From positions 90,701 to 154,700 of the forward strand of contig CAMBZZ010000001.1 in assembly GCA_945872615.1 (NCBI GenBank): a stretch of 64,000 nucleotides of DNA, given 5' to 3'. The position numbers and the translations under genes were made by a program. Position 1 is the first letter of the stretch; the number at the start of each line of letters is the position of its first letter. Below the pieces are notes generated by a model. The model saw nothing but the letters and a program-made list of their open reading frames with translations. It was not told the origin of the DNA and searched no databases. Of this stretch, positions 7,746-63,370 are shown piece after piece. This stretch comes from an uncultured Clostridia bacterium (GTDB taxonomy: Bacteria; Bacillota; Clostridia; Christensenellales; UBA3700).

Positions 7746-8054
7746 TTAAAATTTAATGTTAATATCTACGCCTGCTGGCAAATCCAACTTCATCAATGCT
7801 TCCACAGACTTAGGGGTTGGATTGTAAATATCGATAATTCTCTTGTGCGTTCTAAGTTCGAACTGCTCTCTGCTGTCCTTGTCCTTGTGCACTGCTCTGA
7901 TAATAGTGATAACTTCTTTATCAGTTGGGAGTGGGATAGGTCCGGCGACCTTAACACCGCTTCTCTTTGCCGTCTCAACGATTTTGTCTGACGCAACGTC
8001 GATGAGGTTGTGATCGTAAGCTCTAAGTCTTATTCTGATTTTTTGTCCTGCCAT
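7746..8054 (-). CDS. rpsJ: 30S ribosomal protein S10
   Basis: 102 aa starting [15 protein letters not shown], the canonical S10 N-terminus. First gene of the cluster. Confidence 0.95.
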
Positions 8055-8225
8055 TTTTGTTTCTCCTTTCCTAACTTGTATTCACGCATCCGTGTGTTTC
8101 GCATTGCCCCTAATAAAAAGGACCAGCAGTAGTCCCTCGTTAGTCGCCCGATTGTCGGACTCTTGTCGGCGAAAGTTCTCTGCCAAGGCAGTAACCTCCC
8201 GCGTCATTCCTCACAATGCTCGTTT

Positions 8226-8254
8226 ATCTTATATTAAATTGAAAAACCTGTCAA
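8226..8254 (-). promoter_or_regulatory. Candidate sigma-70-type promoter of the S10 operon
   Basis: Minus strand reads TTGACA (8254-8249), a 17-nt spacer, then TAAGAT (8231-8226). An A/T-rich tract lies upstream. It sits about 170 nt upstream of the rpsJ ATG. Confidence 0.5.
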
Positions 8255-8462
8255 ACGTTTGAAAATAATTTTATAAAAAAGTTTTGTAAAATTTATGTAA
8301 AATTTACTTTTTTTGGTAATTTTTCCAATATCTTGTGTTGTTTGACCGTTATAGATACAATTTTTTATTGCCAATATTTTATTATGAAAGACTTTATTGT
8401 GTAAAGTTTGAATTTTAGACTATTCAATTTGTAAGCTAGTTATTATTATCTAAAATTTCATA

Positions 8463-8491
8463 TTGACTTCTTATTTAAAACCATTTATAAT
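8463..8491 (+). promoter_or_regulatory. Candidate sigma-70-type promoter for the peptidase gene
   Basis: TTGACT (8463-8468), a 17-nt spacer, then TATAAT (8486-8491). AGGTGA RBS at 8501-8506 precedes the ATG at 8510. Confidence 0.6.
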
Positions 8492-8509
8492 AAAATAAAA
8501 AGGTGATTT

Positions 8510-9583
8510 ATGAAAAATAAAGTTATCTCGAGCATTATTTTACTTTTAATTTGTTTGTCAATTATTTTTTTTAATTGTCAGATAATCGCCGAAGAAAATC
8601 CACAATCCTATATTTTAGAATATGCCGAAGAGTTTGTGAAAGGTTATGATTTAGAAGTTGCTGCCATAATACCTATTTACGATTTATATAATAATATTAT
8701 ACGGTATTGCGTTACATACAATAAAGATTCAAAAGAATTTGGTTATATTATTTTAGATAGTATTATCTCAAAAGGAAAAGCCCAACTAATAGAGTTTGCT
8801 TTTAATTGCAATAGTATAATTAAACCTAATAGAAAAAATGTATTAATTAACATAATGGAATATGGACAACAACGAGGTGAATTTATCGAAGTGGGTAATA
8901 GAGCGTTTTATTTATCTATGCTAAAAAAATATTTAGCAAACGATTCTGCGAATAGTATTTATGATGGCTACTTGGATATTGACATTAATTTAAATGATAT
9001 TTTAAATGGGCAATTGCAATTAGTTCCATATGCATTTACATTTAGACCATTTATTCAGGAGGACTTAGCCACAACATCACAAATAGATGATGGAATTTGC
9101 GGAGCAACTACCGCTATGAATGTATTGAAATATTATTATGATTCAGGTGAGGAGAAATATGACGACCTTTTCTATCAAAATGCTGACTATTCAATAAATG
9201 TAAATCAAACATATAATATTTTGAGATCATATCAATCTTCTTCTAATCCTTATAATATAGAAGATCAAGATAAAAGAAAAACTGCACTCAATAATTATAT
9301 TAAGAATAAAACCACTCTTAATGTTACAATAGTTAAATATTTATTTACAACTTGGACGTTTTTTTACAATGACATAAAAAATGGAAAATTAGTTGATGTT
9401 AGATATTCATATATGGATGCAGGACATGCAGTGTTAGCAATCGGTGCAGCAGTAGTCAAACCCGATATTTATCCTTTTGGCACAAAATTTTTATGTGTTG
9501 CAGATACTTGGAATTATAATGTTAGATGGTTGAATTATGATTATCACGATAATGTTAAAGGAATGAGTATTAATGTCTATTAA
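8510..9583 (+). CDS. Secreted papain-fold cysteine peptidase, C39-like (Peptidase_C39_2-like)
   Basis: 357 aa with an N-terminal signal/TM segment (KVISSIILLLICLSIIFF). Candidate catalytic Cys in DDGICGATTAMNVLKYYY, His in DAGHAVLAIGAAVV, and Asp/Asn in VADTWN. The gene is strongly AT-rich compared with its neighbours. Confidence 0.55.
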   Translation: MKNKVISSIILLLICLSIIFFNCQIIAEENPQSYILEYAEEFVKGYDLEVAAIIPIYDLYNNIIRYCVTYNKDSKEFGYIILDSIISKGKAQLIEFAFNCNSIIKPNRKNVLINIMEYGQQRGEFIEVGNRAFYLSMLKKYLANDSANSIYDGYLDIDINLNDILNGQLQLVPYAFTFRPFIQEDLATTSQIDDGICGATTAMNVLKYYYDSGEEKYDDLFYQNADYSINVNQTYNILRSYQSSSNPYNIEDQDKRKTALNNYIKNKTTLNVTIVKYLFTTWTFFYNDIKNGKLVDVRYSYMDAGHAVLAIGAAVVKPDIYPFGTKFLCVADTWNYNVRWLNYDYHDNVKGMSINVY

Positions 9584-9615
9584 ATTAGTATAAAAAATAT
9601 AGAGGTATATTTATT

Positions 9616-10032
9616 ATGAGAAAGGAAATGATAATTATTTGTATTCTATTTATAATATTAATAGTATTGGCGAGCATATTAATTTACAATGTAGCAACCC
9701 ACCCCCCAATCGACAAAATAGTAGAGTTGGACGGCATAGAAAAAGTGCAAGTCACCATTTCTTCTTGTTCCCCCAACGATAATATCCAATTCCAACTTTC
9801 TTCTAACGACGTCCAACTATTCGTTGCAATATTGCAATCTAGCCAAGTCAAAGCGTGTGGCAATCCTCACCTTGACGGTGGTGTCTACCGTATCAACCTC
9901 ATAGGCGCGCAAAAGGAACAATCCATCTCCATTTTAGGTCAATATATGATACTCGGCGGCAAATACTACCGCATCGGGGACGCTGCCCACACGTTGCTCA
10001 GTTCTTGCCTACAAGACATGCTTGCGCAATAA
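9616..10032 (+). CDS. Hypothetical membrane-anchored protein, paralog 1
   Basis: 138 aa with an AGAGG RBS and one N-terminal TM helix. The C-terminal two-thirds are identical to the ORF at 10605-11021. Confidence 0.7.
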   Translation: MRKEMIIICILFIILIVLASILIYNVATHPPIDKIVELDGIEKVQVTISSCSPNDNIQFQLSSNDVQLFVAILQSSQVKACGNPHLDGGVYRINLIGAQKEQSISILGQYMILGGKYYRIGDAAHTLLSSCLQDMLAQ

Positions 10033-10094: not shown

Positions 10095-10432
10095 GTCATT
10101 GTGCTGTGTACGTTTAGCATTAGCAAAGATATTACTTGCAATACTGTGGCAATCTCGTGTATCTTGTCATTCCGAGGACATTTATGTCCGTGGGAATCTC
10201 ATCCCTAGGGGATTATTCCAATCTCTCCTCCTTCTACTCGCACCTTTGCCGTCAAAAGGTTGTATGTCATTCCGCTGTGTACGTTTTGCATTAGCAAAGG
10301 CTATAAATAGCCACGGCAATCTCAATCCTATTAAATTCCTCCTTCGTGCAAATTAAGGTGGCGTGGCTATGCCGAGACGGAGAGATTGCTTATGTCATTG
10401 TGAGCGAGCAAGGCAAGTTTGGCTCTCTCAAC
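10095..10432 (+). repeat. Hairpin-repeat array A (5 units of the GTCATT...AATCTC family and associated modules)
   Basis: Units at 10095-10156, 10166-10201, 10266-10324, 10338-10389 and 10394-10432. Inner palindromes are GGACATttATGTCC (10176-10189) and GGCTATaaATAGCC (10299-10312). Confidence 0.85.
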
Positions 10433-11083: not shown

Positions 11084-11552
11084 GTCATTGTGCTGTGTAC
11101 GTTTAGCATTAGCAAAGATATTACTTGCAATACTGTGGCAATCTCGTGTATCTTGTCATTCCGAGGACATTTATGTCCGTGGGAATCTCATCCCTAGGGG
11201 ATTATTCCAATCTCTCCTCCTTCTACTCGCACCTTTGCCGTCAAAAGGTTGTATGTCATTCCGCTGTGTATGTTTTGCATTAGCAAAGGCTATAAATAGC
11301 CGCGGCAATCTCAATCCATATAAAAAGCCGTCCCTGTGCAAGGGAAGGGGGACCACCGTAGGTGGTGGAAGGGTTGTCTTACTCGTACCTATGCCGTCAA
11401 AAAGAATTATGTCATTCCGAGCCTTACTCGTAAGGCGTGGGAATCTCAACCTTATAAAAAGCCTCCTTTGTGTAAAGGGAGGCGTCAACGCAGTTGATGG
11501 AGGGATTGCTTGTGTCATTGCGGTGGAGCGAAGCGGAACCCCACAATCTCAC
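11084..11552 (+). repeat. Hairpin-repeat array B (7 units; the first three duplicate array A)
   Basis: Units at 11084-11145, 11155-11190, 11255-11313, 11328-11377, 11410-11449, 11461-11510 and 11514-11552. Same terminal motifs as array A. Confidence 0.85.
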
Positions 11553-15075: not shown

Positions 15076-15636
15076 CGCCCCACCTCGCACCTATTCCGTG
15101 AGAGTAACACAATATGTCGTAAGCAAAATAGGTGGCAAGACGGAGGGATAGTCCTATTACGTCATTGCGGTGGAGCGTAGCGTAACTTGGCAATCTCGTC
15201 ATCTTGTCATTCCGCTGTGTACATTTTGCGACAGCAAAGGACATTTATGTCCGTGGGAATCTCATCCCCCTTTGCAGCCTCCTTTGTGCAAAGGGAGGTG
15301 TCCGACGAAAGTCGGACGGAGGGATTGTTTTTTCATTGCGTTGCGTACGTTTTACATTTGCAAAGTGAGTAAAGCGACTGTGGCAATCTCAAGTAGTAAT
15401 GTCATTGCGAAGCCGTTAGGCTGTGGCAATCTCAATCAACAATATCATTGCCCCCAGTGCATTTTGCGTTAGCAAAGTAAGCAAAGCGAACGCGGCAATC
15501 TCAACCGCTTAAAAGCCGCCCCTGTGCAAGGGGAGGGGGACCACTGTAGGCGGTGGAAGGGTTGTCCACTTTTGTCATTACGGTGGAGCGTAACATTGTT
15601 ATGTCATTCCGTTGTGTACATTGGGAATCTCTATCC
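15076..15636 (+). repeat. Hairpin-repeat array C (about 10 units, the largest array)
   Basis: Class-1 units at 15161-15197, 15207-15264, 15333-15391, 15400-15434, 15444-15504, 15574-15593 (truncated) and 15603-15632. Class-2 units at 15277-15327 and 15515-15565. Confidence 0.85.
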
Positions 15637-19224: not shown

Positions 19225-19505
19225 TTGTTGCTCCTATCTTATATTCTTGTTATTATTGTTATTTCGTTGTTATTTTTGTATTATCGTTTTTCGTTGCCTC
19301 TTAGGGCAACGCGGTTTTAGGCACTCCCGTCTTTGCCTTATTTTCGATATAGTTATCTTCGCTCTTTGACTTGTCTTCGTCAAAGGTTTAGTTTACACTT
19401 TTTGACTTGTTTTTAGTTGTCTTGTTGTCGCTACACTCAATCTTTGCTCGCAACGAGATAGTTCTGAGATAGCGTTTTAACCGACACGTATCGACTTTTC
19501 GCCGT

Positions 19506-19994
19506 TTATCGTATAGGCGAGCCTTGAAGACTACTGCCTATCGCCACCGCATAGCCGTAGCAATATAGTCTCAGTTCCGCGCCGCTTTCCTCTACTTCGA
19601 ATGCAAGTTTTATATCCTGCGTTTCGCCATTTTTGGCTTTGATTTTACTTGCAAGACAACCGTCTATCGTCTTATCGGGCGATACTCCGCTAAGGTCGAA
19701 GTCACTCGGCGCAATATTTTTGTCTTTTAGCGCGGTTACCTCTATCGTCACCACCGCCCATATATTGCCTTCGCTTGCGCTCTTGCCGTCTATATTCCTT
19801 GCGAAGTCCACGCTCTCTACCGACCACCGCATACCGCTACTGTCGTTGACTTGACCGATATAGCTCTTATCCCATCTGCTCTTGTCGTTTTTCTCTACGA
19901 GATATATCGTCAAAAATACCGCCGTCACTACTATCAGCGTCACTATTACGAGCATAGCTATTTTTAGTTTTTTGTTGTCTTTGATTGTACTCAA
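19506..19994 (-). CDS. Membrane-anchored hypothetical protein, DUF4352-like
   Basis: 162 aa with one N-terminal TM helix and a beta-rich ectodomain. The start is a TTG, so the start position is uncertain. Confidence 0.5.
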   Translation of the reverse strand: MSTIKDNKKLKIAMLVIVTLIVVTAVFLTIYLVEKNDKSRWDKSYIGQVNDSSGMRWSVESVDFARNIDGKSASEGNIWAVVTIEVTALKDKNIAPSDFDLSGVSPDKTIDGCLASKIKAKNGETQDIKLAFEVEESGAELRLYCYGYAVAIGSSLQGSPIR

Positions 19995-20218
19995 TTAGTC
20001 ACTTATCTTCCTTTTTGGGTTTAGTAAGTTTAGCGTAGTTTTGCTTTTTTACGCTTTCTTATTTTGATTTGCGTCGTACTTTTTAGCCGTTATCACGCTA
20101 TCCTTATTTTTAGTTGTCGGTCGTACTTTTTGCCTATATTCGCTCTTTATTCGTGCTTGGTTATCTGCAAAACACGACTTTGACGACTCGGCTTTTCTAT
20201 CCGACTTGGTTTGTCGCT

Positions 20219-22545: not shown

Positions 22546-22931
22546 AATCTTTCCCCTTATAAAATTTTGCCCGATTGCTATAGCACAATATATTGCGACA
22601 GCGTTGACTATACGCCGATTGATTGCGCATAAATCACGCATACTACGCGCAGTACGATGCGCACTCTGATTGTATAGCTCAAAACGTTGCCCGCGTATCA
22701 CGCAAAATCCACCCGCAATATAACAACCTCGCGACGCTATATAAACCGATACGTATCGACTTTTTGCACCTTTTGTACCATTCGTGCACGCGCCCGCCCA
22801 CAATAAAAGTCTCTTGTCAGGCGGGTCTCGCTATTGTCTAACTCACCTAATCGTCGCATTGATTTTTAGTGCGAGGCAGAGGCTTTGATATGCGCGTGCG
22901 TCAATGCGCCTCTATGGCGTTATCCTTAGCG

Positions 22932-28880: not shown

Positions 28881-29051
28881 TTACTCTTCGCTGATTGCGT
28901 CCACAGGACAACCTGCAGCGCAAGTTCCGCAACTGATGCAGGTATTAGCATCTATTACGAATTGAGTATCGCCCTCGGTAATCGCGCTAACAGGGCAGTT
29001 TTCTGCGCAAGAACCGCATTTGATGCAAGCATCGCCGATAACATATGCCAT
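28881..29051 (-). CDS. fdx: 2[4Fe-4S] clostridial-type ferredoxin (56 aa), not in the ORF track
   Basis: The minus strand encodes MAYVIGDACIKCGSCAENCPVSAITEGDTQFVIDANTCISCGTCAAGCPVDAISEE, with two CxxCxxCxxxCP motifs. An AGGAGA RBS lies upstream. Confidence 0.85.
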   Translation of the reverse strand: MAYVIGDACIKCGSCAENCPVSAITEGDTQFVIDANTCISCGTCAAGCPVDAISEE

Positions 29052-29138
29052 AGTCATAATCTCCTTTTGTATGTTGGTATCTCAATAATATCACATTATT
29101 TCGACTTTGTAAACACATTGCAAAAACTAATGCAAAAA

Positions 29139-30008
29139 TTATTCTTCTTTGAGCGAGTCGGAATCGTCGTCGCCCTCGTCGACGACTTTCGGCTCGACTT
29201 TGCCTATGACGCTAAATTCTCCGACTTTGTAGTATTCTTGCGTAATGCCGTCTTCTTTTTGGATTGCCACCTTGACCCTCTCTCTAAGAACGTCGGTCTC
29301 TACCACCTTGCCCACGCCCTTGTCGACCTTGACGCTTGCGCCCACTTTAGGCATTACCTTTGCCATAGACGCATAGTAGTCGTTTTCGTACTTGAGACAG
29401 CACATAAGTTTTCCGCACATACCGCTGACTTTGGTAGGATTGAGCGATATGTTTTGGTTTTTTGCCATTTTGACGGTAGCTTTTTCGTTGTGAGAAAGAC
29501 ACGTCAAACAACAACATTCTCTTCCGCACATGCCCATTGCGCCCTTGATTTTGACGTCGTCTCGCTCGTAGATTTGTCTAAGTTCGATACGCATCTTCAT
29601 CTCGCCCGCAAGGTCTTTGACCAATTCTCTAAAATCCACTCTACCGTCGGCGGTAAAACTGAATACCACCTTGCTTCTGTCAAAGGTGTACTCCGCGTCT
29701 ACGAGGTGCATTTTGAGCCCGTGAGCCTCTATCTTTTTGTTGCAAAGAGCAAATGCCGCCGCCTTTTTGTCAAGATTTTCTTGATGACGCTTCTCGTCCT
29801 CTTTGGTGGCTTTGCGTACTACGGGTTTTAGTTCCCCGACTATTTTGCTCTCGTCGACCTGGGTGTTGGCTTGTCCTATCTTGGCAAACTCCAATCCCCT
29901 AACCGTCTCGACGATGACGTTGTCGCCTACGCTAAACTGCTCCGACTTGGGGTCGAAATAATAAAGTTTGTTGGCTGCGCCGAATCTGACGCCTACTATA
30001 ATCGGCAT
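29139..30008 (-). CDS. ricT: PSP1-domain protein RicT/YaaT
   Basis: 289 aa starting MPIIVGVRFGAANKLYYFDP, with Cys-rich CGRECCCLTC and CGKLMCCLKYE segments. Synteny after holB. Confidence 0.85.
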   Translation of the reverse strand: MPIIVGVRFGAANKLYYFDPKSEQFSVGDNVIVETVRGLEFAKIGQANTQVDESKIVGELKPVVRKATKEDEKRHQENLDKKAAAFALCNKKIEAHGLKMHLVDAEYTFDRSKVVFSFTADGRVDFRELVKDLAGEMKMRIELRQIYERDDVKIKGAMGMCGRECCCLTCLSHNEKATVKMAKNQNISLNPTKVSGMCGKLMCCLKYENDYYASMAKVMPKVGASVKVDKGVGKVVETDVLRERVKVAIQKEDGITQEYYKVGEFSVIGKVEPKVVDEGDDDSDSLKEE

Positions 30009-30961
30009 ATATATTTTACCTCCAAAATGCCCATCAGCAATCTGTCCGCTACAAAGTCTTTGCGACAGTTGCTATCGATTTTTTTTCTGCTATCGCACAC
30101 CAATCTGTGCACGTTGACTATCATTGCGTTGTTGAAAGTTGCGCTCAAGGTTACAACTTGTTGTAAATCTTCGTCCTCAAAATCCTCTTGTTTGCCGCCC
30201 TGCCTTGACAACATTATTTGAAGTATAATCTCCAAGGCATCGAGATATACGGAAAGTTCGACTTCGTTGAGACGCATTTTTGCCAGCATATTGACCACGT
30301 CCTTGGAGGACTTCATAGATGTAAGCACGTCTATCATAGTCGAAAATGCCTCGATAAATATAGGGTCGCCCGCAATCTTTTCCGCTCTGCCGAGACTGCC
30401 CGAGGCGCAGACCGTGGCTTTTTGCACCAATTCTTCTTCTACTCCCTCTTGTCGTAAAGCAAGCGCGATCGTTGCGTCGTCGAACTTGTCGAGATAGAGT
30501 TTTTTTGCCCTTGACTTGATGGTGGCAAGTACCCCCGAAGGCTTGGTGGTGCCAAGTATGAACACCACGCCGTCGCAAGGCTCTTCCAACGTCTTGAGCA
30601 AGGTGTTTTGAAGTCTCGGCTCTATCTTGTCAAAAGCATCGATGAGCATAACCTTATAGTTGCCCTCGCCGATGCTGTAATACGAATATTCGACAAAATC
30701 TCTCACGCTGTCGGCGTTGTAGCGAGTAAGTCTGATAAGCTCGGTGTGAGAATCGTTGTCTACCCTAATGCAACTGCGACATACCCCGCAGCCGTCCTCG
30801 TCACACAAAACCAACCTAGCCAAAAGCGTACAAAGATTGCTGCAAGCTACTTGGTCGTCACATATAAGCATATAACAATGCCCCAGCATGCCGTGGGTCT
30901 TGTCGGTGAGCATCGTCTTATACGGTTTGCTTTGCATAAGCAACTTGGAATACTTAATCAT
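29996..30961 (-). CDS. holB: DNA polymerase III subunit delta'
   Basis: 321 aa with an AAA-like clamp-loader fold and a zinc module CGVCRSC. tmk-holB-yaaT synteny. Confidence 0.8.
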   Translation of the reverse strand: MIKYSKLLMQSKPYKTMLTDKTHGMLGHCYMLICDDQVACSNLCTLLARLVLCDEDGCGVCRSCIRVDNDSHTELIRLTRYNADSVRDFVEYSYYSIGEGNYKVMLIDAFDKIEPRLQNTLLKTLEEPCDGVVFILGTTKPSGVLATIKSRAKKLYLDKFDDATIALALRQEGVEEELVQKATVCASGSLGRAEKIAGDPIFIEAFSTMIDVLTSMKSSKDVVNMLAKMRLNEVELSVYLDALEIILQIMLSRQGGKQEDFEDEDLQQVVTLSATFNNAMIVNVHRLVCDSRKKIDSNCRKDFVADRLLMGILEVKYICRL

Positions 30962-30982
30962 CTCGTCTTACTCAATTATACC

Positions 30983-31612
30983 TTAGTCAACTATATCTCG
31001 CTGTTGCAAGGTGCGTATTATCGCATCGTGCACTTGCTCTTTGTCCCCGCCTGCATCGATAGCGACTATACGGTCGCTATATCTCTTACAAGCTATCTTG
31101 TATCCGCGATATACGGCATCGTGAAAAGAGCGGTCTTCTTGCTCTATCCTATCGTCCTTGTCGGCTCCGCCTTTTCGCGCAAAGCCGAGCCTAGGCTCTA
31201 AATCCAAAAATATCGTGAGGTCAGGCATAACGTCTCCGCACGCCAAAGTGTTGAGCGCGTCTACGTAATCCTCTCCCAAGCCTCTTGCCACGCCTTGGTA
31301 GGCAAAAGTGGAATCGGTAAACCTATCGCATACGACTATCTCGCCCCTCTCTAGCGCGGGACGAACGACTTGACCTATCAACTGCGCCCTAGAAGCAGAA
31401 TACAACAACGCCTCGCACTCCTTGGTCATACCCACGCTGTCGGTGGACAAGATAAGACTGCGTATCTCTTCGGATATTTTGCTACCACCCGGCTCTCGCA
31501 AAAACAACGCTGTGATACCTTTGTCTTGAAAATATTGCCTTAGCAATGCAATTTGAGTGGATTTGCCCACTCCCTCGCAACCTTCGAACGTAATAAACTT
31601 TCCTCTTTTCAT
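30983..31612 (-). CDS. tmk: Thymidylate kinase
   Basis: 209 aa from the ATG at 31612 (MKRGKFITFEGCEGVGKSTQ P-loop), preceded by an AAGGTGA RBS. Confidence 0.9.
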   Translation of the reverse strand: MKRGKFITFEGCEGVGKSTQIALLRQYFQDKGITALFLREPGGSKISEEIRSLILSTDSVGMTKECEALLYSASRAQLIGQVVRPALERGEIVVCDRFTDSTFAYQGVARGLGEDYVDALNTLACGDVMPDLTIFLDLEPRLGFARKGGADKDDRIEQEDRSFHDAVYRGYKIACKRYSDRIVAIDAGGDKEQVHDAIIRTLQQRDIVD

Positions 31613-31625
31613 ACTCACCTTTATA

Positions 31626-32912
31626 TTATTGTAACACGGCAACGCGACCGTTTACAAGACCAAAAACGCAAGTCGAGTTTTCCTCGATATACTTGGCGAC
31701 TTCTTCGTCGATGATTTCTCCCGCTCTCACTATCGGTACTCCCGGAGGATATACGCCTATCTCGCAAGCGCTTACCTTGCCCGCGCATTGGCTTAGTGCC
31801 ACGAATTCAACTCGTCCCTCCGCGCTCGAAGCCCTCTTTGACTGAGGCGGCACATACAAAGTTTGCTCCCCTTTTTTGGTAGGCGCTACCGACAACGACT
31901 TAGCCAAAAGCGCAAGACTAGTGTAATTGTACGGCGTGACGATGAGCACCATCTTGTCAAGATACGTCATCTCCACCTCGATACCACGCGCCGACAACCA
32001 TTCGGCGGTAAATCTCGCGTCGTTACCCTCGCTTTGCAACACGAGCCTCGTTGGGTCGTCGGTCGGAAGTATCTTCCACTTGCCTATCTCGCCGCCCAAA
32101 CTCTCTATCTCGTCTATAACCTTGTGGTAATATTCGTTGCCCTTGGCTTTCATTTCGCCTACAGCCCAATCCATACTTTGCATGACGAGATAACTTGGCG
32201 ACGTGGTATGGAAAAAATTGCGATAATAGGTAGCAATGTCGACGAGCCCCTTCCCATTGACGTTGAGTACGCTCGCCCCACCGTAGCAAGGCAAAGTCTT
32301 GTGCATGCTGTGTACGCAAAGATGCGCGTGTACGCTTGGATTATCGGGCAAGCAGTCGGCAAAAGCAAAATGCGCGCCGTGCGCAGAATCCACCCATAGC
32401 AACGAGCCGTGTTCGTCGGCTATTTTCCTAAGCTCCGCTAAATCTCGACACATGCCGAAATAATCGGGAGAAGTCGTGCAAATTGCCGACACGTATCGAG
32501 TTTTTTGCATATATCGGCGCAATTCGTCAAGGTCTGCGACCACGCTCACTTGCAACTTGTGCAGCAAGACGCCGTTCCAAAATGCCTTGTGCATATCTCC
32601 AAGGACAACCACCCCTCCCTCTCGCTGCGACAATACTCCCAGCGACGCCAAAATAGCGGTGGTGGAACCCGTGGTAAAGATAAGACTTCTATCCGCTCCG
32701 TACACTTGGGCAAGGTCGGATTCTAGCTCCGCTATAGCTCCTCGAGGATTGAGAAGATTGTCGGTGGAGCCTATCTCCGTCACGTCGTAGGGACACGCGC
32801 TCCAAATACCGCCCGCCAAGTTGCCACTATGCCCGGGCATGTGAAAGCGTGCTTTTGAAGAATCGATATATCCTTGTATTGCACCGAGTAACGGTCTGTC
32901 TCTGTCTTGCAT
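31626..32912 (-). CDS. Orn/Lys/Arg decarboxylase family PLP enzyme (YaaO-like)
   Basis: FHMPGH motif and the SMHKTL PLP-lysine motif. The start is taken as the ATG at 32912; the ORF track uses a TTG at 32921. No clear SD, so the start is uncertain. Confidence 0.75.
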   Translation of the reverse strand: MQDRDRPLLGAIQGYIDSSKARFHMPGHSGNLAGGIWSACPYDVTEIGSTDNLLNPRGAIAELESDLAQVYGADRSLIFTTGSTTAILASLGVLSQREGGVVVLGDMHKAFWNGVLLHKLQVSVVADLDELRRYMQKTRYVSAICTTSPDYFGMCRDLAELRKIADEHGSLLWVDSAHGAHFAFADCLPDNPSVHAHLCVHSMHKTLPCYGGASVLNVNGKGLVDIATYYRNFFHTTSPSYLVMQSMDWAVGEMKAKGNEYYHKVIDEIESLGGEIGKWKILPTDDPTRLVLQSEGNDARFTAEWLSARGIEVEMTYLDKMVLIVTPYNYTSLALLAKSLSVAPTKKGEQTLYVPPQSKRASSAEGRVEFVALSQCAGKVSACEIGVYPPGVPIVRAGEIIDEEVAKYIEENSTCVFGLVNGRVAVLQ

Positions 32913-32919
32913 ATCACTC

Positions 32920-32945
32920 AAAAAAGGCAGTCCTCGGACTGCCGA
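32920..32945 (-). terminator. Hairpin with T-run between lysS and the decarboxylase gene
   Basis: Minus strand reads GGCAGTCcgagGACTGCC followed by TTTTTT, which abuts the downstream start codon. Confidence 0.5.
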
Positions 32946-32948
32946 ATT

Positions 32949-34418
32949 TTATTTGTTAGGTTTCATCGTCGGGAACAACAAAACGTCTCTGATGCTAAAT
33001 TGGTCGGTAAACAACATTACCAATCTGTCTACGCCGATACCAAGTCCTCCCGTTGGCGGAAGTCCGTACATCAAGGCGTTGACGTAATCTTCGTCCATCA
33101 TTTGAGCTTCGTCGTCGCCCTTCTCCCTCTCGGCTACTTGAGCCATAAATCTTGCCTTTTGGTCGATTGGGTCGTTGAGCTCGGAGAATGCGTTGCCCAT
33201 CTCTCTCGCCGTGATGAAAAACTCGAATCTCTCGGTAAGTCTACCGTCGGTAGGCTTGCGCTTGGCAAGCGGTGAAACCTCAACGGGATAGTCGAGTATA
33301 AAAGTAGGTTGAACTAGGTGCTCTTCTACCTTTTGGTCGAACACTTCGTAGAGAAGTTTGCCCCACGTCAAGTTGTCGGACAAGCCAACGCCCACCGCTT
33401 CGGCTTGCTTTTTGAGTGCCTCTACGTCGCCCGTTGCGTCAAAATCGATACCCGTGTATTCCTTGACCGCCTCTGCCATGGTCATCTTTTTCCAAGGTCT
33501 TGCCAAAGATATAGGCGTGCCTTGATATACTATCTCCGTCGTGCCTTTGGTGGTGAGCGCGATATGCTCGAAGAGCCTCTCCGTGAGATCCATCATATGA
33601 TGATAGTCGGTGTAGGCTTCGTAGAGCTCAACCGTGGTAAACTCGGGGTTGTGCTTTGGATCCATACCCTCGTTGCGGAAAAGTCTACCCATTTCGTAAA
33701 CCTTTTCGAATCCGCCTACGATAAGTCTCTTGAGGTAAAGCTCGGGCGCGATACGCATATACATATCGATGTCCAAGGTGTTGTGGTGGGTGACGAAAGG
33801 TCTCGCGCTAGCTCCTCCCGCTATAGTGTTGAGGATAGGAGTGTCTACCTCGATAAAGCCCTCTCCGTCCAAGAAGGAACGTATAGCGCTGATAATGCGA
33901 CTGCGCATGACGAAGGTTTCCTTGACTTCGGGATTGGCAATGAGGTCTACGTATCTTTGACGATACCTGAGGTCGGTGTTGGTAAGACCGTGGAACTTTT
34001 CCGGCAACGGCAACAACGACTTGGAGAGCAACTCCATCTTTTCGGCGTGAATGGATATTTCGCCCATCTTGGTGGTAAATACCACACCCTCTACGCCTAC
34101 GATGTCGCCTATGTCGTATTTCTTAAATTCGGCATAGTTTTCTTCGCCAAGAGAATCTCTGCTGACGTAAAGTTGGATACTGCCCGTGCCGTCGAGCACG
34201 TGTCCGAAGCTTGCCTTGCCCATAACTCTCTTGGAGATAAGACGACCTGCAATACGCACCTTTTTGTCGGCGTACTCGTCGTAATTGTCCTTGATAACTT
34301 TGGCGTAGGCATTCTTGTCGAATTTGACTATTTCGAAAGGATTTTTGCCCGTAGCAATAAGATTTTCGAGTTTTTCTCGGCGTGCCTTGAGTATATCGTT
34401 TAAATTTTCTTGTTCCAT
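32949..34418 (-). CDS. lysS: Lysine--tRNA ligase (class II)
   Basis: 489 aa with an OB anticodon-binding domain and class II motifs ([17 protein letters not shown]). Confidence 0.95.
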
Positions 34419-35646: not shown

Positions 35647-35676
35647 TTGACAATACCGACGAAAATTGCGTACAAT
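35647..35676 (+). promoter_or_regulatory. Candidate promoter giving a leaderless or near-leaderless mRNA
   Basis: TTGACA (35647-35652), an 18-nt spacer, then TACAAT (35671-35676). The ATG lies at 35683, only 6 nt after the -10 element, and there is no SD. Confidence 0.5.
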
Positions 35677-35682
35677 ATATCT

Positions 35683-35940
35683 ATGAAACTGTGGATACGA
35701 CTGTTAGAAGACAACAAAATGATAAAGGACAAGATAGTCCAATGTAACAACATCGGCTGCGCCCTCGACCTCGAAGAGGTGCTGAGAGATATATGTCACA
35801 GCCTCGATTTGCCTACCCCGATAGTATTGCCTACGCACTATCGCAACTTCGTAAACTTCCATAACGCAAAATTCAAAAAAGACGACTTCGTAGAAAGCCT
35901 TGACGGCGATATATTGATAGTAGAGGACTGCAAAGAATAG
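35683..35940 (+). CDS. Hypothetical small protein (85 aa)
   Basis: ORF MKLWIRLLEDNKMIKDK...ILIVEDCKE. No family recognised. The TTG start at 35647 in the ORF track coincides with the -35 box. Confidence 0.45.
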   Translation: MKLWIRLLEDNKMIKDKIVQCNNIGCALDLEEVLRDICHSLDLPTPIVLPTHYRNFVNFHNAKFKKDDFVESLDGDILIVEDCKE

Positions 35941-36007
35941 CAGTCCTCTACTTAAAAACTCGAAAAAAGTCGATACGTGTCGCCAAAATCACCTACGAGC
36001 GGATTGA

Positions 36008-37941: not shown

Positions 37942-38096
37942 TTGCCCTCGTTGTGGTCGAAAAAGTCGATGAATACAATATTTTGTATGCGAAAAAACTT
38001 TTCGACAAAAGACTTGATATTTTTGATAAATATGGTATTATTTTATATACCGCAGTTTGATTGTAGCACATTTTATACGTTACTTCAAGGAGTTTT

Positions 38097-40511: not shown

Positions 40512-40587
<76 letters not shown>

Positions 40588-40593
40588 TATTTA

Positions 40594-40626
40594 GCACCTA
40601 TGGATTTTCCATAGGTGCATTTTTTA
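40594..40626 (+). terminator. Intrinsic terminator after the tRNA
   Basis: Stem GCACCTATGG/CCATAGGTGC with a 5-nt loop, followed by a T-run. Confidence 0.8.
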
Positions 40627-40705
40627 TCGGGTGTTGCACTTGATAGTATAATTCACCGGAAACTATAGCGACCTTTCAAAAATTGAAAGGTCGTATTCGT
40701 CAAAA

Positions 40706-41257
40706 TTATTTTTCTAATAAGTTGATTATCTTTTTATTCTTGCTTTGCGCATATTTGTACGCAAGCGCAGTGCCGCTGTTGGTTTGATATGCCTCGCCTA
40801 ATGAATTGTAGCCGCCTTGCGGGCGATAATTTTTGTCATAATAGAATATACAATATTGACTGTCGTCTATCATTGCTCGGTTGCGCTCAATATAACTAGC
40901 TTTTCCTGCCTTATATTTGCCTGCAAACTCAAACTCTTCGTCAACCGTAAGAATGCCTTGCTTTTGCCCTAGAAAACGTGAAAAGATACTCTCCCACTTT
41001 TGCCGTTCGCTCTCCAAAAAACACCCTTCGCTCTTGCAAGTGTACGCTACCCTTTTGACTGAGGGATAGCAACGCTTGAGGTTAGAAACAATGCCGTGAC
41101 ACAACGTATTAAACTCACTGCGACTGCCAAACAAAAAGGTAGTTACTTGACGATGAGCTATCAAAAACTCGATACATGTCTTGACTTTTTCGACAAGTTG
41201 GTCGGTGACAGCTATATTTCTATGTCCGAAAAAAGAACAAGTTTTTTGATTTTGCAT
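40706..41257 (-). CDS. SLOG-superfamily protein, DUF1273/YpsA-like
   Basis: 183 aa with an N-terminal CSFFGHR motif and overall Rossmann-like alternation typical of DUF1273. Confidence 0.55.
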   Translation of the reverse strand: MQNQKTCSFFGHRNIAVTDQLVEKVKTCIEFLIAHRQVTTFLFGSRSEFNTLCHGIVSNLKRCYPSVKRVAYTCKSEGCFLESERQKWESIFSRFLGQKQGILTVDEEFEFAGKYKAGKASYIERNRAMIDDSQYCIFYYDKNYRPQGGYNSLGEAYQTNSGTALAYKYAQSKNKKIINLLEK

Positions 41258-41453
41258 ATTCCCTCTTTAGCTGATACGGTATAAAAAACCTTGTTTTGAC
41301 AATAAATATATCAATTTATATCAACCATACATACATTATATCATATATGAGTTTGTTATTATCTCATTTTGAACTAATAACAAAATTTTTGGTGTATTAT
41401 TTGTATCATCGTCTTGCGACAATACACTTACAATATAGTTAAGGAGTTGAGCT

Positions 41454-41768
41454 ATGACAAAAATTACCTACGACGAAGTGATTAATAGAATAGGATACTT
41501 TAGAACGAAAGCCAATTTGTCCTTGCGAGAAACTAGCGCAAGGCTCGGTTACAATCAGCAGTTTATGAAAACGATAGAAAATAAAAGCATCGAACTAAAG
41601 GTCAAAACGTTGTTGGACTTTTGCGATATAGTAGATATTACTCCTCAAGACTTCTTCTATCTCGGCGAGCACTACAACAAAGAGGATAAAAACGTGCTAG
41701 AGTTGTTCAACGCCCTCTCTGCAGACAACAAACAAACGATAATCGAATTGATGAAAAAACTCAAATAA
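41454..41768 (+). CDS. XRE-family helix-turn-helix regulator
   Basis: 104 aa with an HTH_3-like segment (KANLSLRETSARLGYNQQFMKTIENK). Confidence 0.7.
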   Translation: MTKITYDEVINRIGYFRTKANLSLRETSARLGYNQQFMKTIENKSIELKVKTLLDFCDIVDITPQDFFYLGEHYNKEDKNVLELFNALSADNKQTIIELMKKLK

Positions 41769-41776
41769 GGCGCGAT

Positions 41777-42016
41777 ATGACCACCGATGAAGCAATAAGA
41801 AAAAGAATAACGGAAATAGTCGAGCAAAATAACACCACTTTGACGGCGCTTTGCTTGCAATCCAATCTTACTCCGTCAACGATATTCGACTTGATGGTTG
41901 GCAAAAGCAAATGTCCAAAAGTCATTACCATAAAGAAACTATGTATGGGCGCCAATATAACGCTGAGAGACTTCTTTGACCGCGACTACTTTGACGATAT
42001 AGACGATATTTTGTAA
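41777..42016 (+). CDS. XRE-family helix-turn-helix regulator (short)
   Basis: 79 aa, HTH-like (TLTALCLQSNLTPSTIFDLMVGKS). Starts 9 nt after the previous gene. Confidence 0.6.
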   Translation: MTTDEAIRKRITEIVEQNNTTLTALCLQSNLTPSTIFDLMVGKSKCPKVITIKKLCMGANITLRDFFDRDYFDDIDDIL

Positions 42017-44267: not shown

Positions 44268-44432
44268 AATCCCCCACCCGACAAAGTCGGGAGCCCCCTT
44301 TGCACAAAGGGGCCTTTTTATAATGATGAGATTCCCACGCTCGCTTTGCTCGCTCTGAATGACAAACTTCTTGGTTGTCACTCCACGGCAATGACATACA
44401 ACCCTTTGACGGCAGAGATGCGAGCAAGACTA
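44268..44432 (-). repeat. Hairpin-repeat array D (same family, inverted orientation)
   Basis: Reverse complements of class-2 (44268-44314), class-1 (44328-44363), truncated class-1 (44376-44395) and the CTCGCA...GCCGTCAAAGGGTTGTAT module (44393-44432). Confidence 0.8.
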
Positions 44433-44433
44433 G

Positions 44434-44459
44434 GAAAAAGGCAACTTTATCAGTTGCCT
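44434..44459 (-). terminator. Intrinsic terminator downstream of cysK
   Basis: Minus strand reads AGGCAACTgataaAGTTGCCT followed by TTTTT. It lies about 190 nt after the cysK stop. Confidence 0.6.
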
Positions 44460-44652
44460 CAATTTGTTATTAGTTGCAATGGTGCTGCTCTCTCGCGGTG
44501 TAGATGCGAGTTAGGCGCGAAGAGCGAGGATTGGGCGACAGGAGCATACTCCTTGTATGTGACTAAGCACAACCGCAAGTTCGACAAAGCATAACGACGC
44601 ACATCCGCCACGAGAGCGACACAGTATTTCGAAGTATATATACCGTGAGAAA

Positions 44653-47617: not shown

Positions 47618-47656
47618 ACCAAGACCGTGTCGCATCGATACGGTCTTGGTTATTTC
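47618..47656 (+). terminator. Intrinsic terminator after the Rrf2 gene
   Basis: Stem AACCAAGACCG/CGGTCTTGGTT with a 13-nt loop, followed by ATTT. Confidence 0.7.
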
Positions 47657-51078: not shown

Positions 51079-51118
51079 TTTCGCAAAAAGTCGATACGTA
51101 TAAGCAAAAACACAAGTT

Positions 51119-51165
51119 GTGGCGTAGTGATAAGAAGCTGTCACTACGCCACTATTATATTTTAC
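51119..51165 (+). terminator. Intrinsic terminator after the transporter gene
   Basis: 12-bp stem GTGGCGTAGTGA/TCACTACGCCAC with a 10-nt loop, followed by a T-rich tract. Confidence 0.7.
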
Positions 51166-52575: not shown

Positions 52576-52680
52576 CTATTGATATTGATATGTTAGCATA
52601 ACCGATACGCTTTGTCAAACAATGATTGCTAACATTATAAAAAATCCTAATAAGTATCGACTTTTTGATGCTTTTGTAGG

Positions 52681-63323: not shown

Positions 63324-63370
63324 ATTGTTCTCCTTGTAAAAAATGTTGATACGTATTGATTTTTTGCTAT

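Follow-up and report, generated by a model that had tools for sequence, protein, structure and literature searches.

A strand-oriented sequence motif at gene ends in a group of uncultured Christensenellales

Short dispersed repeats at gene ends are known mainly from Proteobacteria, and their usual explanation is a hairpin or mobility. Repetitive extragenic palindromic (REP) elements of Escherichia coli that lie within ~15 nt of a stop codon reportedly affect the translation of the upstream gene, a result that Liang, Rudd and Deutscher are said to have described in 2015. Known uptake sequences occur at ~1 per kb, and none is known from a Firmicute; parS, Noc-binding sites and matS are not known to show polarity toward genes or a preference for stop codons. 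The present analysis concerns a stretch of 64,000 nt from an uncultured Clostridia bacterium (contig CAMBZZ010000001.1, positions 90,701 to 154,700; hereafter the window) and a motif of ~20 nt within it, composed of an A-run followed by GTCGATACGTRTCG. In a small group of uncultured gut-type Clostridia, this motif directly follows the stop codon in many unrelated genes.

REPs are probably co-transcribed with the upstream gene, some copies lying within genes, and the survey that catalogues them describes no such family in Firmicutes (PMC3733652). The terminators typical of low-GC Firmicutes are A-tract/T-tract stem-loops near stop codons (PMC1590033). The motif reported here belongs to neither kind in a simple way: it is a family of short cis-elements restricted to a group of uncultured Christensenellales, enriched over expectation, oriented with transcription, close to stop codons and under purifying selection that extends to synonymous sites.

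Sequence, enrichment and distribution

The window is part of a Firmicute chromosome of ~46% G+C, which contains a ribosomal-protein operon, Rex, genes of the DnaB_2/DnaI type and a tRNA-Thr. The exact 12-mer AAGTCGATACGT is found four times (19486-19497 and 22751-22762 on the minus strand, 35967-35978 and 51088-51099 on the plus strand), as an earlier reading of the sequence alone had counted, against 0.03 occurrences expected from dinucleotide-preserving shuffles. The 17-mer AAAAAGTCGATACGTRT with up to 3 mismatches has 10 hits in the window (0.45 expected), and the inner 12-mer CGATACGTRTCG with up to 1 mismatch has 10 strand-hits (0.63 expected), an enrichment which rules out a chance origin of the copies. 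Seven window copies constitute one family with a density of ~1 per 9 kb (Table 1).

Two forms of the motif can be distinguished. Form I is the perfect palindrome A5-6 GTCGATACGTATCGAC T5-6, which is terminator-like in appearance, and form II is the asymmetric sequence A5 GTCGATACGTRTCGnn A4-5, where R is often G and the variation falls on the last two core positions and the right flank. Most window copies are of form II or more degenerate, while ~20 of the fetched loci match the 18-mer used for fetching on both strands at an offset of 6 and therefore contain a perfect 24-bp palindrome, AAAAGTCGATAC joined to GTATCGACTTTT. The 12-bp palindrome CGATACGTATCG is contained within GTCGATACGTATCGAC, and the core is thus palindromic over 12-16 bp. 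In the window and among the secondary copies in the loci, in whose selection the A-run played no part, a good core is always accompanied by an A-run on at least one side. Position 11 is A or G only, and the 3' flank can be an A-run or a T-run and differs even between orthologues (L072 versus the rest of group 1). The conserved unit is asymmetric and consists of A5, (G/C)T, CGATACGTRT(CG), 2-4 variable bases and A4-5. The pattern of conservation in orthologues obtained without bias identifies this asymmetric sequence as the selected unit, in which the second half of the palindrome is optional; the consensus AAAAAGTCGATACGT(R)T proposed in the sequence-only reading coincides nearly exactly with the part that is invariant in those orthologues.

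The 18-mer AAAAGTCGATACGTRTCG was scanned in one genome per species across 185,579 species, which returned 90 stretches. Seven related metagenome-assembled genomes (MAGs), classified as Christensenellales or uncultured Clostridia, account for 68 of them, namely CALGRX01, JBJETT01, JBJETR01, JBJETQ01, JBJETP01, CAMFVQ01 and CAAGRV01; the four best-sampled MAGs hold 11-18 eight-kb blocks with the exact 18-mer each, which extrapolates to a few dozen to ~100 copies per MAG. The density in the related loci is ~1 per 30 kb or less, the window being ~3-fold denser. Among the 22 remaining stretches, 17 are coding sequence of release factors (..KVDTYR.. directly before GGQ) and 5 are singletons, so that a wide taxonomic spread of the motif is ruled out. 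In a viral collection only one unrelated coding sequence was matched, twice, and no paper containing the 16-mer was found in the literature searched. The tRNA-Thr was the sole hit of Rfam 15 at gathering score in the window, and in five related loci no Rfam family covered the motif sites at E up to 0.05; likewise, nothing among the described element families that were compared matched the motif.

The release-factor matches are a separate matter: the 18-mer AAAAGTCGATACGTATCG encodes ..KVDTYR.. just 5' of the release-factor GGQ (L012, L029, L033, L054, L062 and 12 more loci) in Enterococcus, Anoxybacillus, Bacillus, Kurthia and several Proteobacteria, a coding coincidence which would contaminate naive genome-wide counts of the motif.

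Judging by its DNA identity of 91-92% to the loci of two MAGs and ~80-85% to others, the window comes from a further species of the same Christensenellales group. It may be origin-proximal, as the order of a decarboxylase-family gene, tmk, holB and the PSP1 gene (28900-33000) matches yaaO-tmk-holB-yaaT near oriC in B. subtilis. If so, the ~3-fold higher motif density of the window might reflect a regional bias.

Orientation, stop-codon proximity and selection

Genes were called with a codon-usage model trained on long open reading frames (ORFs), and 83 good instances of the motif were collapsed to 39 independent orthologue groups, 27 of which are asymmetric. In 15 of the 27 asymmetric groups, the A-run side of the core has a co-oriented called stop at a distance of 2-13 nt, and in none of the 27 does a stop lie that close on the other side. 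Five window copies begin 5-22 nt past a stop codon (A-runs from 19500, 51085, 52666, 63365 and 35963; Table 1), which agrees with the sequence-only reading, and the 22-nt case rests on the 85-aa ORF in front of it (35683-35940, +), a called gene whose conservation extends to four related genomes. Where genes lie in tandem, the site adjoins the stop even if a spacer of 140-350 nt precedes the next start codon, and the order of stop, motif and separate ordinary terminator is common (AsnA, GlpK, a flavoprotein gene and the window MFS gene). Between convergent genes, form I lies 3-11 nt from one of the stops.

All genuine window copies are co-oriented with their flanking genes, a claim of the first reading that stands, and relative to genes the motif is both enriched and strand-biased. 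Orientation follows the local gene rather than the direction of replication, as the plus copies 35964 and 51085 follow plus-strand genes among minus-strand genes, and it matches the local genes even in convergent pairs. Including both copies within coding sequences, sense orientation is found in 17 of 17 cases. The sense strand after stops is A-rich (38-43% A), but its A-runs exceed T-runs only 2-2.9-fold, and the compositional bias is thus insufficient alone to account for the 17 of 17. The genes concerned encode AsnA, PcrA (followed by LigA), type III glutamine synthetase, AlaRS, RsmF, the glycerol kinase GlpK, an iron-containing alcohol dehydrogenase (Fe-ADH), aminotransferases, an M20 peptidase, transporters, a cyclophilin, GNAT proteins and a ROK kinase. 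As these are unrelated housekeeping functions, the regulon of a single transcription factor is ruled out; rather than marking the promoters of functionally related genes as operators do, most sites follow stops, and many lie between convergent genes.

The same facts bear on the possibility that the motif is a DNA uptake signal, built up by biased uptake and recombination like the DNA uptake sequence (DUS) of Neisseria or the uptake signal sequence (USS) of Pasteurellaceae. Such an origin would suit a lineage-specific, extended motif with A/T-rich flanks whose inverted overlapping pairs form terminators and whose occasional coding copies are held at the nucleotide level. However, strict gene orientation and stop distance are foreign to uptake sequences, nearly all copies are noncoding (of the occurrences of the 8-mer CGATACGT, 135 are intergenic and 21 coding), and the uptake-like role that had been suggested is unlikely because the motif is sparse, at one copy per ~9 kb of the window and no more than one per ~30 kb of the related loci; its chance of being correct appears very slight.

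When orthologous spacers are aligned, the motif is an invariant island in diverging surroundings. Bias-free loci are few and comprise the window itself and L093-L100, which were fetched by protein. At 35964, three further species, whose coding nucleotide identity is as low as 61%, retain the block A-run/CGATACGTGTCGC/yAAAAT unchanged, with the adjacent 25 nt diverged in these three orthologous loci, all chosen without the pattern. The 19480 copy has orthologous copies with diverged flanks in four related MAGs, and the 22745 site has orthologues in L004 and L056 as well as a degenerate counterpart, AAAAAAACCGATACGTGTATT, at the equivalent position in L096, the most distant of the protein-fetched species, where the locus was likewise chosen without the pattern. 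No gain or loss of a site between species was seen, for which only L093-L100 count as unbiased.

The two copies within coding sequences bear most directly on selection. The near-copy in the decarboxylase-family gene, already listed in the first reading, is genuine and reads CAA AAA ACT CGA TAC GTG TCG GCA (QKTRYVSA). Ten codons are identical in four orthologues of 77-84% nucleotide identity, against 44% gene-wide, which is the longest run of identical codons in the gene; 8 of 9 third positions are invariant over five orthologues, against 24% overall, and the variable one is the R position. The homologues are of the same length, by which an insertion, and with it this sign of mobility, is ruled out. 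The second coding copy lies in sense orientation in an alanine racemase gene (L053), where five orthologues of 62-81% identity retain AAAAA-(C/A)T-CGATACGT-R-T together with CAAAAA further downstream, and where six third positions in succession are invariant, against 19% overall. A G/A exchange at R results in a tolerated Cys/Tyr replacement, and the distal CG of the palindrome is lost.

Folding and possible readers of the motif

Form I folds at -11.3 kcal/mol (z = -5.1) with an A-tract/T-tract architecture, and the L001 copies are called by a terminator scan. For the window copies the predicted energies on both strands are only 0 to -2.5 kcal/mol, comparable to those of shuffled sequence, and none of these copies is called or has the stable G+C-containing stem-loop of an intrinsic terminator. 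A stability of -4 kcal/mol is reached on the sense strand in 10 and on the antisense strand in 9 of the 27 asymmetric groups, the other 17 being weaker than this on the sense strand. A T-run 3' of the stem on the sense strand is present only in the palindromic form in related loci and, weakly, at 52646 and 63340, and the asymmetric window copies carry A-runs or no run. Within orthologue groups the stability swings from -7.0 to -2.7 kcal/mol because core positions 15-16 change while their partners 1-2 stay GT; outer stem pairs are lost without compensation, and the sequence remains fixed. G at position 11 keeps a U.G pair in sense RNA and gives a C.A mismatch in antisense RNA, and the more stable strand is the sense one in 19 groups versus the antisense one in 6. 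A conserved RNA hairpin is ruled out by the absence of compensatory changes and the weak and variable stems: conservation acts on the sequence, not on the hairpin.

These results leave little room for a minimal intrinsic terminator that would act against antisense or convergent transcription through a short hairpin and T-run abutting the stop, the function first proposed for the window copies as a 4-5 bp hairpin with a T-run. Read in antisense, the invariant stop-side A-run does become a T-run behind the palindrome, the antisense hairpins of complete asymmetric copies reach -5.3 to -6.4 kcal/mol, the site in convergent pairs is placed to stop the opposing gene, and the scan calls the L001 copies. 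However, the antisense hairpins of all window copies and of 18 of the 27 groups are weaker than -4 kcal/mol, many of them at 0 to -2, no window site is called, the common G variant introduces a mismatch in just the antisense strand, conservation of the sequence extends to copies with unconserved stems, and the copies in genes or in 40-nt intercistronic spacers are left unexplained. For the window, where the folds are weak and the stems unconserved, this function is unsupported, and the copy at 35964, earlier judged correctly placed to terminate the convergent ABC permease gene, is not credible as its terminator because its antisense hairpin reaches only -1.2 kcal/mol. As a general explanation, antisense termination is quite improbable.

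The motif might instead be a REP-like repeat, once spread as a mobile or hitch-hiking terminator module, of which the full copies (terminators) and the decaying copies (as in the window) are now relics. The motif is short, palindromic and extragenic, and lies at gene 3' ends and between convergent genes as REPs do (PMC3733652); its full form with A/T tracts has the terminator architecture typical of low-GC Firmicutes (PMC1590033), and other dispersed intergenic repeats are present in these genomes. Turnover, however, is lacking, as every site compared between species is occupied, including those in pattern-free loci; the coding copies are non-insertions under synonymous constraint; degenerate copies have not decayed evenly but share the same 14-18 bases from species to species; and the copies carry no GTAG/CGTC tag and number tens per genome, not hundreds. 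Such an origin is improbable, and if the motif were only a repeated terminator module, it would be a modest addition to the catalogue of bacterial repeats.

A second, unrelated repeat family with units of ~110-130 nt occurs in the window at 44388-44615, 11238-11377, 15458-15565, 10237-10271, 11226-11260 and 11435-11479. Many units occur in loci of related MAGs, often in tandem or inverted arrays which fill long intergenic regions (for instance L037 3400-3973, L043 4862-5538, L076 673-915), and some arrays begin beside a palindromic copy of the motif; no Rfam match was found for this family.

Tentatively, the motif is best explained as a strand-specific recognition site marking the ends of cistrons, with its reader on the transcript or on the non-template strand. 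A lineage-specific, sequence-specific factor would recognise it there, in the second case during transcription, and only in the orientation that coincides with the sense strand of a transcribed region. The site would typically start 0-6 nt after the stop and before the gene's own terminator, occasionally inside coding sequence, and by marking the cistron end the factor would determine processing at the 3' end, stability or the boundary. The palindrome A5-6 GTCGATACGTATCGAC T5-6 would arise from the head-to-head overlap of two units at operon ends and between convergent genes, and would also be equipped to terminate transcription in both directions, in the manner of the A-tract/T-tract intrinsic terminators that are common in Firmicutes. 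That such a factor exists, its nature, its place on RNA or the non-template strand and its effect on the mRNA are what we infer.

Several observations weigh against this explanation. Most related loci were fetched by the exact 5' 18 bases, by which the conservation of that half is inflated, and at 35964 the conservation is symmetric and spans both flanking A/T tracts. The copies in coding sequences fit poorly with a role in 3'-end processing or stability. Three orthologous sites of group 7 lie ~10 nt upstream of the -35 element of a promoter driving a thiamine pyrophosphate (TPP) riboswitch, with T-runs pointing toward the gene; the site pair of group 14 sits between two predicted divergent promoters; and L032:3056 is antisense-oriented and lies past a terminator, all places where sense transcription is doubtful. 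Moreover, no candidate reader was identified, and a 12-16-bp palindromic core with an ACGT centre is typical of a dimeric DNA-binding site.

For the promoter-side and coding copies, the palindromic core and the A- or T-run as 3' flank, a DNA-binding protein is therefore kept in consideration. The motif would then be bound as double-stranded DNA by a chromosomal protein that is sequence-specific and probably dimeric, be it of nucleoid/segregation type, a global regulator or a polar barrier, and the orientation of the flanks would have been shaped secondarily by transcription, sense A-runs being kept because a T-run after the palindrome would terminate sense transcription. The ACGT-centred core with its A/T-tract flanks and the commonness of perfect 24-28-bp palindromes suit such a protein, as does the 3' flank, since an A-run and a T-run are both A-tracts on the duplex. 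The unconserved hairpin strength, the in-gene copies fixed at synonymous sites, the sites upstream of promoters or between divergent promoters, the A-rich sense strand and the tens of copies per genome, stable at orthologous positions, are all consistent with it. Yet a symmetric dimer leaves the 17 of 17 sense orientation unexplained (the composition bias is only ~2.5:1), as well as why the stop-proximal half is always the intact one, why G is preferred at position 11 in the distal half only, why the distal CG is lost in the alanine racemase copies, and why the stop distance is 2-13 nt when spacers extend up to 350 nt. There is no coherent regulon, most sites are outside promoters, and beside the promoter-proximal sites no obvious candidate for an autoregulated DNA-binding gene was seen. 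On this balance a chromosomal protein, the main rival of the cistron-end explanation, is possible and yet rather unlikely.

A bolder version of the cistron-end explanation, which we hold to be unlikely, is a polar gene-boundary signal of a kind undescribed in bacteria, in which a dedicated lineage-specific protein would use the ~20-nt asymmetric site. The protein would read the transcript, the non-template strand, or the duplex as a one-way barrier at the 3' end of the cistron, where it would define or protect mRNA 3' ends without a hairpin, or let the sense polymerase pass and stop the antisense one; the few copies embedded in coding sequence would be paid for by frozen synonymous sites. If a cistron-boundary factor specific to RNA or to one strand does exist, it would represent a new layer of bacterial gene-end control. 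The selection suffices to fix synonymous positions of two housekeeping genes, and the features together suggest a specific trans-acting reader, so far never sought. The motif may be used as a marker of gene ends and strands in these MAGs and as bait for the binding partner.

Window features and comparison with described systems

The copies in the window and the terminator-like hairpin next to one of them are listed in Table 1.

Table 1. Motif copies and an adjoining hairpin in the window, with their surroundings and predicted folds.
Feature	Position	Strand	Surroundings	Fold (kcal/mol)
Asymmetric copy GAAAAGTCGATACGTGTCGGT	19480..19500	-	A-run (19500) 5 nt past stop (19506) of 162-aa gene 19506-19994; 255 nt upstream of ABC-F gene	sense -2.5, antisense -1.0
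Copy AAAAAGTCGATACGTATCGGT with 12-bp palindrome CGATACGTATCG	22745..22765	-	away from any stop codon, between phosphoribosyltransferase gene (stop 22932) and PNP-family gene	
Copy within coding sequence, sense orientation	32485..32507	-	Orn/Lys/Arg-decarboxylase-family gene 31626-32921	
Asymmetric copy AAAAAGTCGATACGTGTCGCCAAAAT	35964..35989	+	22 nt past stop of 85-aa ORF; 23 nt from stop of convergent ABC-2 permease gene (36008, -)	sense -1.9, antisense -1.2
Possible decayed palindromic copy AAAAACTCGATACATGTCTTGACTTTTT, membership uncertain	41163..41190		overlapping opposite-strand hits with 2-3 mismatches, in low-GC island past tRNA-Thr	
Copy AAAAAGTCGATACGTATAAGCAAAAA, distal arm degenerate	51085..51110	+	6 nt past stop (51078) of MFS_2 transporter gene	no predicted fold, 0
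Ordinary terminator-like hairpin GTGGCGTAGTGA...TCACTACGCCAC, limits approximate	51119..51152	+	3' of the 51085 copy, read from sequence	
Variant copy AAAAAGTCGATACTTATTAGG, then T-run	52646..52666	-	14 nt past stop (52681) of GNAT acetyltransferase gene	
Degenerate near-palindromic copy AAAAAATCAATACGTATCAACATTTTTT	63340..63365	-	5 nt past stop (63371) of ROK-family gene; 21 nt ahead of DHDPS/NanA-family gene start	no stable fold, either strand

The possible copy at 41163-41190 was absent from the earlier list, and some members of that list have been removed. The supposed variant at 37960-37976 shares only AAAAAGTCGAT with the motif, and the stretch is unconserved in an orthologous region that is otherwise 90% identical. 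The swapped half-sites reported for the loop of the terminator at 47629-47642 amount to a common 7-8-mer only. The sequence AAAAAGTACGAC, which had been considered related, is indeed enriched (4 occurrences versus 0.02 expected); its kinship with the motif does not hold, as two occurrences are coding (KKYD) and two derive from a local duplication that is also present in orthologues. The duplication is a direct repeat, ggcWaaaaagtacgac, at 20073-20084 and 20120-20131 (-) in the spacer between the amidohydrolase and 162-aa genes, and is found in L004 and L056 as well.

The region 37942-38096, which contains the divergent promoters of the ABC ATPase and DnaB_2 genes, is 90% identical over four species (coding sequence 61-84%) and includes the palindrome-like CTTTTGTCGAAAAG. 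A strong 13-bp hairpin, AGTAGAGGACTGC...GCAGTCCTCTACT, overlaps the stop of the 85-aa ORF at ~35917-35950; three related species retain it, and neither strand has a T-run behind it. The region is flanked by near-consensus promoters at 35647-35676 (+) and 35606-35578 (-). Two islands of low G+C, at 8001-10000 and ~40600-42000, have contents of 0.31 and 0.39 against ~0.46 for the window. The second, which starts directly past the tRNA-Thr (40512-40587) and holds an HTH_26 gene, may for these reasons be an integrated element. Among the related loci, a TPP riboswitch is located in L050 (5365-5458, -) and a tetrahydrofolate (THF) riboswitch in L038 (4073-4166, -), and in L050 a DNA-methyltransferase-like gene is inserted just upstream of the promoter-proximal copy of the motif.

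Among described systems, the parS, Noc-binding and matS sites resemble the motif as palindromes of 12-16 bp with an ACGT-type centre, at tens per genome, which are kept at orthologous positions, also within genes. Identity with parS is ruled out, as the motif shares only the central ACGT with the consensus TGTTNCACGTGAAACA, and searches for a canonical parS in the window (allowing up to 2 mismatches) and in the related loci gave no hit. Resemblances to the Spo0A box, LacI/AraR-type operators, sites of integration host factor (IHF), the 3' region of 16S rRNA and the T-arm were dropped because each shares only 5-7 bases.

With DUS and USS, the motif has in common its lineage-specific over-representation, its A/T-rich flanks, inverted pairs acting as terminators and coding-region copies constrained at the nucleotide level, whereas its density is 10-30 times lower, nearly all copies are noncoding, and it is strictly gene-oriented at a fixed distance from the stop. 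Compared with Firmicute terminators, the palindromic form has at least 4 A on its 5' side and at least 4 T on its 3' side, lies near stops and suits bidirectional termination between convergent genes. In contrast to these terminators, whose stems vary, the same 16 bases of the motif recur at unrelated loci in seven species, and the window form has neither a sense T-run nor a stable stem and usually precedes a separate terminator.

In size, palindromy and placement the motif resembles REPs, which are short palindromic repeats, extragenic and mostly 3' of genes, both co-directional and convergent (PMC3733652); it is likewise an imperfect extragenic palindrome within the 20-40 bp by which REPs are defined and, like them, probably shares a transcript with the gene upstream. 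The differences are several: the tag GTAG/CGTC by which REPs are recognised (PMC3733652) is replaced by a 5' end composed of an A-run and then GT or CT; there are tens of copies per genome instead of hundreds; 'dimers' consist of half-units that overlap in pairs and not of separate units; what is maintained is the primary sequence of a single half instead of the stem; and sites show no turnover between species, nor are the coding copies insertions. The family thus belongs to the short dispersed gene-end repeats as a general kind, and lies outside every named family with which it was compared. In contrast to the repeats of that kind described so far, it occurs in a Firmicute lineage common in gut metagenomes, and selection acts on the primary sequence of a single half, whose orientation strictly follows transcription and which is tied to the stop codon.

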